From a virus, in the IMG/VR virus record IMGVR_UViG_3300049855_000609, positions 1 through 64,000 of that record: DNA of 64,000 nucleotides, one strand, 5' to 3'. The notes beneath the pieces were generated by a model. That model was not told the origin of the DNA and made no database searches. It saw only the letters and a program-made list of their open reading frames with translations. This document shows positions 61,207 through 64,000 of the stretch, one piece after another; the first letter of the stretch is position 1; every line of letters begins with the position of its first letter. Made by a program: the position numbers and the translations under genes.

Positions 61207-61875
61207 TCAGGATTCTGCGGTGATCAGGCTCTCATATTCCTCCGGACTTAAATGCCTGTCATGAGAGTTATCAGGCAATTTGGGATCTATCTTCTTGACC
61301 AGAATACAGTCTCCTTGTCTAAGTATCCTTTCTATATTTCCTTTGGGTACCGGGGTAGTGATGGTCCAGGCTATGGCTTCCCGGGCTGTAATAGGTCTTA
61401 CCCGGTCATTGTATGGCCTCATGGACATAATGGAATTAGGAGAGATCCAGATACGGTATATCCTGTCTGTGGAGGTGTCCTTACAGCTGATAAAATAGGC
61501 ATCCTCGGCATATTTATCTTCCGGGAACAGGATTTCCTTAGAAACTTTGAACAGCTCATAGGTATCCTCATAATCCCGGCTTTCCAGCCCTCCCTGTTCA
61601 TTTACCCAGGTGGTGAATTTGTAATAGGTCACACTGTCTGCCAGCTCAGCCCCGGACTCTGCTATGAATTTCTCCATATCATAATACAGGAAAGCCACCC
61701 GGCGGTGTTCCACATTCTCTATTTTGGCTATCTCGGCAAAGGTCAGAGGCTGTACTTCACTCCAGATACTCTGGGCCTCAGTTTCAGGAAAAGGACAGTG
61801 GTCTCCGAATTTCGTTTTGGCTATGCGAAGCCCGGTGTTAAAATCCATTTCTACATTCTGTATGATCGTTTTCAT
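61207..61875 (-). CDS. DUF6745-like protein
   Basis: IENVEHRRV, C.DTST.R.Y.IW, AREAIAWT, RQGD motifs. Confidence 0.6.
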   Translation of the reverse strand: MKTIIQNVEMDFNTGLRIAKTKFGDHCPFPETEAQSIWSEVQPLTFAEIAKIENVEHRRVAFLYYDMEKFIAESGAELADSVTYYKFTTWVNEQGGLESRDYEDTYELFKVSKEILFPEDKYAEDAYFISCKDTSTDRIYRIWISPNSIMSMRPYNDRVRPITAREAIAWTITTPVPKGNIERILRQGDCILVKKIDPKLPDNSHDRHLSPEEYESLITAES

Positions 61876-61894
61876 GATGATGTTGGTTTAATGA

Positions 61895-62617
61895 TTATTC
61901 GGAATCTCTGTATATTCTTCCGGAGTAGCTGACAGAAAGTTTAAGCCATGGATCTCCATTGGTTTCACTGATAATAAGAGGGGTTATCTCATTCCACTCT
62001 CCACCGGTGCTGATGTTTCTTAGTTCCACATCTTCCATTTCCTCATTCACTACTATGGGATTATCAGACAGGTCATCCATGAGCCTGTGCAGTTTACCTT
62101 CCAAAGAGGTTACTACTTTTTCCTCTTCATCTGTAAGGATGCAATCCCCTTTGTAAACAAACAGGACCACTCCAGAATTCCCGGATATGGATAACATTTT
62201 ATCAGTAAGGAACCGGCATTCTTTCTCATCCAGGCAGATACCAGTCTCACAGATCTCAGATTCATTGTATTCTGCTTTGGCATCTTTGTAAAACTGTAGT
62301 TGTTTAGGCTCTTCATTATCACTCAGGGTAACAGTAACAGTGCCGGCTTCTCCCTGGTAGTAGCCATCTGAGTTGACGTAGAACTCCACTTTATCAAAGA
62401 CAAGGTCATCCAATAAAAGTCCCAGGTCCTCATTTTCAATTTCTTCCTCCTCTTCTGTACCAAAGTGGTCTCCGTAGAATTTCCACTCCATGTTTCCCAT
62501 GGAGTCCCCTCCACAGTCAAAAGTCAGGATGGCCCTGGTGATGCCGGTCTTTTCCCAAATGGATATGATCTCCTGTTCCTCTTCATCCATTTTCTTTTTT
62601 TTCTCTAAAACTGTCAT
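61895..62617 (-). CDS. Acidic DUF6878-like protein
   Basis: GI....LTFDCGGDS.G...N.DG...G..GTVT pattern. Confidence 0.55.
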   Translation of the reverse strand: MTVLEKKKKMDEEEQEIISIWEKTGITRAILTFDCGGDSMGNMEWKFYGDHFGTEEEEEIENEDLGLLLDDLVFDKVEFYVNSDGYYQGEAGTVTVTLSDNEEPKQLQFYKDAKAEYNESEICETGICLDEKECRFLTDKMLSISGNSGVVLFVYKGDCILTDEEEKVVTSLEGKLHRLMDDLSDNPIVVNEEMEDVELRNISTGGEWNEITPLIISETNGDPWLKLSVSYSGRIYRDSE

Positions 62618-62619
62618 GA

Positions 62620-63015
62620 TTATAATTTTTGCATAAGTTCTTTAAATTTCTCTTCTCCTTCAGGCTGCGGGTTATCTACTGGCTTCACTCCATTGTTCAT
62701 CCAGGGTTGTACCTCCATGTGTTTCAGGTAATCCTGTGGTGTAGGAATGAACTTCATCCTAAAGTCTTCTGCCACATGAAGCATGGCTATATCCACGGTG
62801 TCCACACTCCGGCCATCAGAATTAGTGATGTTGTAACCAAAGATGCGCGGGATGATATGATAACAGAACCAGGTATTGTGGGTAAGTGTCCTGGCTGTGT
62901 TGTTGTTCATGGACTCCTTAGGGCTGTCTATTAAAATGTGTATATCTATGTAGTCGCTGATTTTACCACCCCAGCGCTTGACAGAACTGCGGGCATGAAT
63001 TTCCGGATTAGCCAT
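62620..63015 (-). CDS. DUF6915-like protein
   Basis: MANP.IHA.SSVKRWGG...DY..IH..ID..K....R..THN...HV.ED...IPT.QDYL; conserved His/Asp residues suggest metal binding. Confidence 0.75.
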   Translation of the reverse strand: MANPEIHARSSVKRWGGKISDYIDIHILIDSPKESMNNNTARTLTHNTWFCYHIIPRIFGYNITNSDGRSVDTVDIAMLHVAEDFRMKFIPTPQDYLKHMEVQPWMNNGVKPVDNPQPEGEEKFKELMQKL

Positions 63016-63622
63016 CTTGTTTTCTTTTTATTTTGTAATTGTATATTTTTTCAATTTGACTTAGAAAAGCCGAATACTCCTGAGACATTTTCATTCTGTT
63101 ACATATCTCACAACAGGATACTGAATTACTGTTAGTATATCCTATTTTATTATCAACTCTATCAACACCATTATAGACAATAGGTATTCCAGCTCTCGTC
63201 TCCCCTGTTTTAGAGTTTTTGATATTATAAATGCTGGAAGGACTACTATTACAATAATGACAATTTCCTGCTATAAGCATTTTAAACCCCTCTATTGTTA
63301 GGACAAAAGATAAGCCTCTATTTTGTGCACCTCTTTTATATGCATTAAATAAACCTTTGTACGAAGTCTCTATACTTCTTCTTCCCTTATTTGAGGGAAT
63401 CTTACAGGTGCCAATTCCACAACAGACAGAATGTCCAGCAGCAATATTATTATATTGAACAACTTTTTTATTACCACAATTACAAAGAACCTCTATGAGT
63501 CTACGAACAGTCTTTCCGTATTTCTTGTACTCAGCATCTTTGATAAATATAAAGCTGGTCTCTTTGCCCGAATTTGTAAATAGTCGTTGGCCTTCTTGCA
63601 GTATGTGTCTCACTCTTTTCAT
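63008..63622 (-). mobile_element. Free-standing HNH-type homing endonuclease gene
   Basis: N-terminal C.CGN...SVCCG zinc module; YKRGA..RGL.F.LT, CHYC, NGVDRVDN..GY...NSVSCC..CN.MK; AT-rich and no CCGG seen. Start re-called at MKRVRH (63622). Confidence 0.85.
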
Positions 63623-63651
63623 GACACAATATACAAAGATTACTTCAGTTT

Positions 63652-63738
63652 TTAATAATAAAAGATAGGGAGGTAGTCTTCCACCTTGCCTCCCCACCTT
63701 TTTACTGAACTCTTTGAATGGATCATAGGATTAGCCAT
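63652..63738 (-). pseudogene. Truncated 5' stub of the DUF6915-like gene (28 aa)
   Basis: MANPMIHSKSSVKRWGGKVEDYLPIFYY*; 18 of the first 25 aa are identical to the N-terminus encoded at 63015. Confidence 0.85.
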
Positions 63739-63763
63739 ACATTTATTTTTTTTTAGTTTGAGA

Positions 63764-63872
63764 TACTACCAGGTAGCAATACCACTTTCAAAGTGCTTTC
63801 GTGTCTGTTCATACGAGGATGAAGTGGTTCAGAAATTTTATCACTACTTTGCACAATGTACTACCTGGTAGC
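63764..63872. repeat. Intergenic element bounded by two TACTACCWGGTAGC copies (direct and inverted repeats); candidate structured RNA or tandem operator
   Basis: TACTACCAGGTAGC at 63764-63777 and TACTACCTGGTAGC at 63859-63872, with nested internal stems. Confidence 0.7.
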
Positions 63873-63885
63873 GTCAACAAACTAA

Positions 63886-64000
63886 TTAGTCCCAGATTTG
63901 AGTGATCTCCCTTTTAAAAGGATTGTATTCCACCTGTTTTCCCAGGCTCCAGTTCCCCGGCAGTACCTGTAAAGGCTGGTGCTCATTGGAGAACTGGCCG
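63886..64000 (-). CDS. 3' end of a small conserved protein (..EH..L.V.PG.W....QVEYNP......D) that typically accompanies DUF6745 genes; partial
   Basis: Reads ...GQFSNEHQPLQVLPGNWSLGKQVEYNPFKREITQIWD*; start lies outside the window. Confidence 0.7.
   Translation of the reverse strand, partial: GQFSNEHQPLQVLPGNWSLGKQVEYNPFKREITQIWD

Follow-up and report, generated by a model that had tools for sequence, protein, structure and literature searches.

A free-standing HNH homing endonuclease gene within the 5′ end of a phage DUF6915 gene, probably accompanied by a foreign replacement start

Why should a phage carry the beginning of one of its genes twice, with a nuclease gene in between? This arrangement is found in IMG/VR record IMGVR_UViG_3300049855_000609, of which we analysed positions 1 to 64,000 (the window); the window is part of a phage genome of 92.5 kb that is complete and ends in direct terminal repeats. 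The gene concerned encodes a DUF6915 protein, its first 25 codons are present in two diverged copies, and the gene lying between them encodes an HNH endonuclease. The reading that we favour, with a probability of roughly 0.78, is that a free-standing HNH homing cassette has entered the 5′ end of the DUF6915 gene, between native codons 25 and 26, and has provided the gene with a foreign replacement start.

On the minus strand, the order is a 91-amino-acid (91-aa) gene, a 147-nucleotide (147-nt) intergenic region, an open reading frame (ORF) of 28 codons, a 29-nt spacer, a 204-aa ORF and a 131-aa gene. The last of these (63015–62620), the working gene, encodes a full-length DUF6915 protein (131 aa; PF21866, E = 1e-31). 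The 28-codon ORF (63738–63652), here called the stub, has its ATG at 63738 and 25 gene-like codons to 63664, followed by FYY and a TAA codon ending at 63652; its homology to DUF6915 stops after codon 25. Stub and working start are direct repeats of 25 codons in the same orientation, 723 nt apart, with 18 of 25 residues and 47 of 75 nt identical. The pairwise BLASTP match between the stub and the full copy has an E value of 4e-13, and a six-frame search of the whole 92.5-kb genome gave the stub and the full gene as its sole two matches (E = 3.6e-8), so the likeness is far beyond chance. An assembly artefact was considered and rejected: the longest run common to both copies is 11 nt, and an independent assembly (locus L041, described below) has the same layout. 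All of the coordinates and sequences in the initial annotation, which had been made from the sequence alone, could be reproduced, including its count of 18 shared residues; it had reported at least nine identical residues with different codons, and our recount gives ten of the 18.

Could the two parts be joined by splicing? Phage nuclease genes often reside in group I introns, and the same genome has one in a helicase gene; the nuclease might then lie in a self-splicing intron or an intein-like element, with the stub as exon 1 spliced to the gene body. However, Rfam returned no match at E ≤ 1, and no Intron_gpI, on either strand between 61500 and 64000, in keeping with the earlier remark that no flanking intron or intein was apparent. 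As a positive control, a group I intron was found by Rfam elsewhere in the genome (RF00028, 76.9 bits, E = 2e-19), so intron detection works here. Only 41 nt of noncoding sequence flank the HNH ORF on one side and 0 nt on the other, too little for a ribozyme, and the ORF is not surrounded by a P1–P9 ribozyme core joining exons, as a group I intron-encoded endonuclease would be. It has its own start and stop and, unlike an intein, is out of frame with both gene copies; moreover, the own ATG and the complete conserved N-terminus of the working gene would be pointless if they were spliced out. The HNH gene is free-standing, in neither a self-splicing intron nor an intein, and we give the splicing explanation next to no credence. 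The group I intron itself (L138:3705–4615; genome 78705–79615, outside the window) contains a 199-aa GIY-YIG ORF and breaks a DnaB-like helicase gene within Walker A: a 56-aa ORF ends in ...GIAAAPKV and the next ORF has GKTTLVDF.

The 204-aa ORF matches a PHROG HNH endonuclease (E = 4e-10), although none of the Pfam HNH models scored above threshold against it. A profile of the ORF and its homologues (which exist at 54–63% identity) had PacI as its sole match in the PDB (E = 0.0015), over GxDRxDN..GY...N...CCxxCNRxK. The AlphaFold model has a predicted local distance difference test (pLDDT) score of 87.6, and PacI (PDB entry 3ldy) is also its top fold match according to Foldseek (probability 1.00, target-normalised template-modelling score 0.53, over the catalytic half), followed by the Gme HNH nickase. 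PacI and the window protein have the motif GxDRxD...GY...N...CxxCNRxK in common, and C121, C124, D154, R155, N166, C170, C171, C174, N175 and K178 are invariant across 16 HNH homologues. The ORF thus has an HNH (ββα-metal) nuclease domain with its metal and zinc ligands kept, and the nuclease fold and motifs are intact. It differs from PacI in an additional N-terminal β-rich, Cys-containing domain (residues ~13–70), in having no methylase partner nearby and in its genomic behaviour, which is that of a homing endonuclease.

The nuclease gene is present in one copy in the genome and has a GC content of 33% (25% at third codon positions) versus 44% for the genome. Together with the spacer (~20% GC) it forms an AT-rich block flanked by the stub (45%) on one side and both parts of the DUF6915 gene (44%) on the other, and because of this contrast with the flanks the block is foreign. 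The spacer can be partly aligned with those of two further nuclease loci, L041 and L024. The terminal ten codons of the nuclease gene (NYKIKRKQDG; window 63008–63040) are outside the conserved family core and resemble the A-rich DUF6915 leader of relatives; the nuclease ORF seems to have been extended into what was formerly the 5′ untranslated region of DUF6915.

To decide which copy of the gene start is native, the window was compared with HNH-free relatives: 20 related viral loci at first and then 80 more (~100 in all). In these the DUF6915 gene has neither an HNH gene nor a second N-terminal copy, the exceptions being L024, L041, L015 and L131, and stub-like 5′ sequence is joined straight to the gene body. 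Among syntenic relatives, the HNH gene is sporadic and at one site. A stub-like start fused to the gene body is what the initial annotation had predicted for relatives without the nuclease, and this holds in the ~100 loci; it had also named a stub in HNH-free relatives as grounds for abandoning its proposal, and such a stub was seen in none of them. The neighbourhood is conserved as well: the upstream 91-aa gene is on the same strand and 5′ of DUF6915 in 68 of 80 related loci, with a gap of 3–146 nt in 60 of the 80.

With 13 of the 20 relatives examined first, the stub has 88–96% aa identity at the N-terminus, compared with 72% with the window's own working copy; the relatives' gene starts are closer to the stub than to the functional start of the window. 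Over codons 3–25 it differs from L004 by one aa and by 23% of its nt, which suggests that it was under purifying selection until recently. It is the working copy that is the outlier: E5, A8, R9, I19, S20, D24 and I27 are each found in 3–17% of 35 distinct HNH-free alleles, and the mean nt identity to relatives is 61% for the working 5′ end and 68% for the stub. All family-invariant residues of the first 26 positions are nevertheless kept in the working copy. These comparisons identify the stub, together with the promoter region 5′ of it, as the original start of the resident gene, and the working gene appears to start with a diverged, imported copy of codons ~1–25, which would leave the protein complete without splicing.

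The same data bear on a local origin of the repeat, in which the 5′ end of the gene was duplicated in tandem, the nuclease was inserted between the copies and the copies then diverged in place. Two direct copies of 25 codons at a distance of 723 nt are what such a duplication would leave. Decay in place, however, predicts that the nonfunctional copy should be the aberrant one, and the opposite is seen: the stub is near the family consensus, with differences that are almost all synonymous, and the functional copy is the outlier. A divergence of 37% in nt would also have had to accumulate while the nuclease stayed intact, and in L041 it is the stub that tracks an HNH-free sister, while working codons 1–25 do not. 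Since the dead copy is the conserved one, in-place duplication and divergence was rejected as highly improbable.

The working start had also been described as recoded, the synonymous differences being taken as protection from cleavage. Stub and working start have 59–63% nt identity; pairs of HNH-free alleles have, over the same codons, a mean of 69% with a range of 51–93%. The divergence is therefore inside the range of ordinary alleles, a foreign allele suffices to account for it and deliberate recoding is not needed. Apart from the recoding, the splicing-free homing cassette put forward in the initial annotation is supported by comparison, with a native stub and a foreign start; the cleavage near codon 25, the resistance of the new 5′ end, the stub as homology arm and the translational coupling that it proposed are putative. 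Candidates for immunity are instead the nonsynonymous changes near the junction.

Two HNH homologues could be placed in their genomic context, L024 and L041, so that among the matches listed the HNH family is at DUF6915 in the window and at both of these loci. L041 is a metagenome contig whose neighbouring genes are unrelated to those of the window, and it answers the earlier call for stub–nuclease–gene arrangements elsewhere: a 29-codon stub (MANPIIHSESSVKRWGGKLDDYLTI, then QIYF and a stop) is followed by a 199-aa HNH gene and, 3 nt past the HNH stop, by a full DUF6915 gene. The L041 stub is intact, overlaps the stop of the upstream gene and is broken after codon 25, as in the window (25/26). 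HNH-free sisters are available for this locus (L258 and L259, 80% aa identity). Compared with L258, the stub is identical at 61 of 75 nt (81%) and codons 26–115 of the working copy at 234 of 270 nt (87%), as against 52 of 75 nt (69%) for codons 1–25 of the working copy (Fisher p = 9e-4); the best breakpoint is at nt 67–78, which is codons 23–26. By these identities, the stub and the gene body of L041 are native, and what has been imported into the working gene is exactly codons 1–25. Relative to the native form, the imported segment has changes at codons 6, 18, 19, 20 and 21, mostly just 5′ of the junction. The rare residues that the window has in common with the HNH-linked allele of L024 are likewise around the junction, and they speak for the homing-cassette reading. 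For a further HNH homologue, P0002 (63% identity), the called ORF has a 30-residue N-terminal extension that in another frame, and by back-translation only, can spell ...GKIEDYIEI and a stop, a possible further stub ending at codon 25.

A nuclease of another family shows the same pattern. At L015:4043–5393 a GIY-YIG/NUMOD nuclease (Pfam) is directly 5′ of DUF6915, and a stub of 7 codons (MANPLIH, then a stop), broken at codon 7/8, stands behind a native-type promoter. The HNH-free sister L010 is 90–100% identical to L015 from codon 9 on and differs heavily in codons 1–8, the change falling sharply at codon 8/9; a second, foreign copy of the promoter in L015 resembles that of lineage L019. The replacement start of L015 is thus foreign up to the junction codon. 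No relatives of the L015 GIY-YIG gene were found in IMG/VR besides the gene itself. At L131:1582–2451, a LAGLIDADG nuclease (PF14528) occupies the same intergenic site between the upstream gene and DUF6915, with no stub. With HNH, GIY-YIG and LAGLIDADG nucleases all there, the DUF6915 5′ flank is targeted by three nuclease families.

The stubs also allow us to judge whether the stub is kept for a function of its own, as a short upstream ORF or leader peptide that tunes translation of the nuclease or of DUF6915, or as a small dominant-negative peptide. The window stub does still have a start codon, an A-rich leader and every conserved residue, with 29 nt between its end and the HNH ATG, and that of L041 is likewise intact. 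Recent invasion, however, equally predicts an intact stub; the codons after the junction differ (FYY* in the window, QIYF* in L041), the L015 stub has just 7 codons and L024 has no open stub. A retained peptide function is accordingly barely conceivable.

L024, a 168-kb viral contig that is syntenic with the window, shows the nuclease in a different position. Here the nuclease has the upstream gene's terminator on one side and the promoter of an intact DUF6915 gene on the other, and no clear stub is seen. DUF6915 codons 21–24 are matched by the 5′ arm of the L024 hairpin, GACTATCTACC, which can also be aligned with the stub ends. A family of strong terminator hairpins, with (C)TATCTRCC and GGYAGATA(G) as arms, was observed 3′ of the conserved upstream gene at L024:3904–3955, at L131:1466–1499 and in the L113 intergenic region. 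Since L113 is HNH-free and L131 is the LAGLIDADG locus, the family is a native element. A peptide 'DYLPL' encoded 5′ of the L024 HNH gene (GACTATCTACCTTTA) had been regarded as a trimmed stub remnant; this was withdrawn as unproven, the sequence being the 5′ arm of the strong terminator hairpin (z = −6.4). The arm may instead be a microhomology partner.

These observations feed an alternative view of how the stub came about. The nuclease would normally be intergenic, as in L024, and the stub would be the scar of a single aberrant one-sided repair, serving neither as a homology arm nor in expression; the common break position would reflect a common cut site, or an 11-nt microhomology between codons 21–24 (GAYTAYCTNCC) and, in donors, the 5′ arm of the terminator hairpin that precedes the nuclease. 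The position of the L024 nuclease, the likeness and alignment of its hairpin arm and the native character of the hairpins all fit, and microhomology junctions are found in one-sided homing in T4 (PMC2988022). Against it, native-like sequence in L041 continues for 8 nt beyond the microhomology (ACG ATT CA, codons 24–26), a remainder not expected from a junction within it, and both stub loci have lost the promoter between the nuclease and the gene, so that expression now relies on upstream transcription. We consider the scar explanation unlikely; it concerns the origin and role of the stub only, and the invasion and the replacement of the 5′ end are not disputed by it.

Under the homing-cassette reading that we prefer, the nuclease would cut HNH-free alleles around codons 19–27, and the break would be repaired from an HNH-carrying co-infecting phage, copying the nuclease together with the donor gene start; homology on the right would come from the gene body. 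In the first such event, illegitimate or microhomology repair would have placed the severed native start 5′ of the nuclease gene, and in later rounds an existing stub could serve as left-hand homology. At the left junction, this one-sided first repair might have been helped by the 11-nt similarity between codons 21–24 and the L024 hairpin arm. Substitutions in the imported start (I19, S20, D24 and I27 in the window) would plausibly spoil the recognition site and so protect the carrier. The common junction codon and the edge of the conversion tract give indirect support to site-specific cleavage of nuclease-free alleles and to biased inheritance in mixed infection. No promoter fits between the nuclease and DUF6915 in the window or in L041, so transcripts of DUF6915 probably start at the native promoter and run across stub and nuclease gene; in the window, translation would begin at the DUF6915 ATG that overlaps the HNH stop. 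One-sided illegitimate break repair, and not design, may be the origin of the arrangement. The stub, once formed, is perfect homology up to the cut, and the unit could then home like an intron-borne nuclease.

Whether stub, nuclease and new start together form a self-contained homing module, with the stub as left homology, the body as right homology and the imported start as immunity, is a more tentative matter, and we would put it at somewhat less than even odds. If true, the nuclease would be placed precisely where it cuts, in the manner of intron-borne nucleases, without needing a ribozyme or a conserved upstream neighbour. This would explain movement between phages that share only DUF6915, such as the window and L041, and gene-end stubs beside nuclease genes would become maps of cleavage sites across phage metagenomes.

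Several points weigh against the homing-cassette reading. In a mosaic test, the DUF6915 body was like that of L001, L002 or L003 at 8–10 of 9–12 informative sites, while the N-terminus was L024-like at 4–5 of 7–8, which is borderline (p = 0.045–0.10). The nearest HNH-free relatives of the window have ~70–76% DNA identity, and Fisher tests of the boundary gave p values of 0.02–0.39. Relatives this distant do not resolve the right-hand edge of the imported segment, and for the same reason no exact recombination breakpoint could be placed in the DUF6915 gene of the window. The HNH-linked DUF6915 allele of L024 shares five rare residues with the window (E5, I19, S20, D24 and I27), but the codons for the shared Ser20 are unrelated (AGC versus TCT), and convergence fits as well as common descent. 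The GC content of the imported 5′ end is like that of the genome and unlike that of the nuclease, so this end has not necessarily travelled far with the nuclease. A stub is not required for the nuclease family, since L024 has an intact gene and no clear stub. Finally, we infer the cut site and the immunity only from junction positions and substitution patterns.

The features of the locus are listed in Table 1.

Table 1. Features in and around the interrupted DUF6915 gene, in window coordinates
Feature	Position	Strand	Basis and remarks
Conserved upstream 91-aa gene, 3′ part	63886..64000	-	ORF listing of the extended locus; continues as far as genome position 64161; normally found to the left of DUF6915
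Native intergenic region with leader, 5′ of the stub	63739..63885	-	Sequence; two CTACC-W-GGTAG palindromes, A-rich leader
Stub, displaced native codons 1–25 of DUF6915 (MANPMIHSKSSVKRWGGKVEDYLPI)	63664..63738	-	aa identity to HNH-free relatives; GC 45%
Left junction and AT-rich cassette spacer	63623..63663	-	Three junk codons FYY, TAA 63654–63652, 29 nt to the HNH ATG; GC 19.5%
Free-standing HNH (ββα-metal, PacI-like) homing endonuclease gene, 204 aa	63008..63622	-	Profile, structure, homologues
Overlap of HNH stop and DUF6915 start, ATGGCTAA	63008..63015	-	Sequence
Putative replacement 5′ end (codons 1–28) of the working DUF6915 gene, HNH-associated allele type	62932..63015	-	Rare residues, nt identity
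DUF6915 body (codons 29–131 and stop)	62620..62931	-	Alignment; nearest alleles L001–L003

Upstream of the stub, ~20 nt 5′ of its ATG can be aligned with the leaders of relatives, and a weak sigma-70-like match lies at 63791–63763. The two palindromes there (GCTACCAGGTAGTA and GCTACCTGGTAGTA; window 63764–63872, minus strand) are ~80 nt apart and could be an operator or a collapsed terminator. Beyond the interrupted gene, the 91-aa gene, DUF6915, a 240-aa acidic protein and a DUF6745-like protein form a module (window 61207–64000; L054–L133), and DUF6915 is also found, at ~40% identity, in Streptomyces, Bacillus (Tsamsa-like), Gordonia and Sinorhizobium phages.

A 15-mer, ATATTTATAATAAAA, is located 5–10 nt before the ATG of four nuclease genes of three families (L015:4092–4106, L024:3968–3982, L041:3964–3978 and L131:1561–1575); the HNH gene of the window is without it. 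In the first 134 loci it was seen only before these four genes and was considered as a cassette-specific signal, but a wider scan found it before many ordinary ORFs and the idea was dropped. In other viral contigs, 64 of 89 sites are within 25 nt of an ORF start, including those of tail sheath, tail tube and baseplate genes, and the 15-mer is more likely to be a late-type promoter.

The locus suggests a third way for a phage nuclease to live inside an important gene, besides introns or inteins and gene splitting or bypass: it brings a spare start. The stub pinpoints the insertion with single-codon precision and probably does the same for the cut site. It thus offers a purely computational route to the targets of nucleases that have yet to be characterised, and the order stub, nuclease, full gene is a signature with which metagenomes can be searched. 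For annotation, such stubs should be read as displaced gene fragments and not as small genes, and the first codons of a working gene may differ in history from the rest. That three nuclease families strike the DUF6915 5′ end marks this unstudied gene as conserved and probably important.

Among phage systems, the free-standing nucleases of T4-like phages are comparable. SegF, SegG and MobE, known for 'intronless homing', have intergenic positions or divide a gene into two parts that complement each other (nrdA/mobE, gene 39/60), and one-sided illegitimate repair is documented in T4 (PMC2988022). As in the window, the nuclease gene is outside introns, is sporadic among syntenic relatives and is presumed to cut a nearby conserved gene of nuclease-free phages and to spread with co-conversion of the flanks. 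The difference is that this review mentions no redundant stub or replacement gene end; in Aeh1, nrdA is split by mobE into two complementary ORFs, whereas the stub of the window is fully redundant with codons 1–25. In the T4 MobA/gene 60 cassette, function is rescued by ribosomal bypass of a 50-nt gap together with gene splitting (bioRxiv 10.1101/2022.08.31.505936, citing Bonocora et al., 2011). The nuclease likewise travels with extra sequence that disrupts its own target, the insert holds a diverged copy of target-gene sequence and the host gene still yields a working protein, but the rescue in the window would be a second complete 5′ coding end and not a bypass.

A full-text literature search found no description in phages of a stub with a replacement start, and the closest precedent is a group of mobile-ORF elements known from the mitochondria of fungi. 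In these, an endonuclease ORF brings a foreign C-terminal end into atp6, atp9, cox2 or nad3 and the native end is left as a remnant (PMC3630166; PMC7487136); this remnant matches relatives, and the two ends are ~63% identical (PMC3630166), with 63.5% nt identity in Glomus atp6. The organelle systems differ from the phage locus in host and in nuclease type, LAGLIDADG or GIY-YIG there and PacI-like HNH here. They also mostly replace the 3′ end, which is read in frame with the host gene, whereas the window element replaces the 5′ end and the new start has its own ATG, so that the start codon, the leader and the supply of a promoter become an issue. The likeness is otherwise close: an endonuclease ORF lies in a conserved gene and is flanked by two copies of one gene end, the native copy, now displaced, resembles that of relatives lacking the endonuclease and differs from it mostly by synonymous changes, the expressed copy in the insert has diverged (the two copies have 63.5% nt identity in Glomus atp6 and 63% in the window) and splicing is not needed. 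By sequence comparison, a displaced copy of native type and a gene-joined copy of foreign type are seen in the window, in L041 and in L015. The window element works like a fungal mobile-ORF element, of which it is a mirror-image variant.

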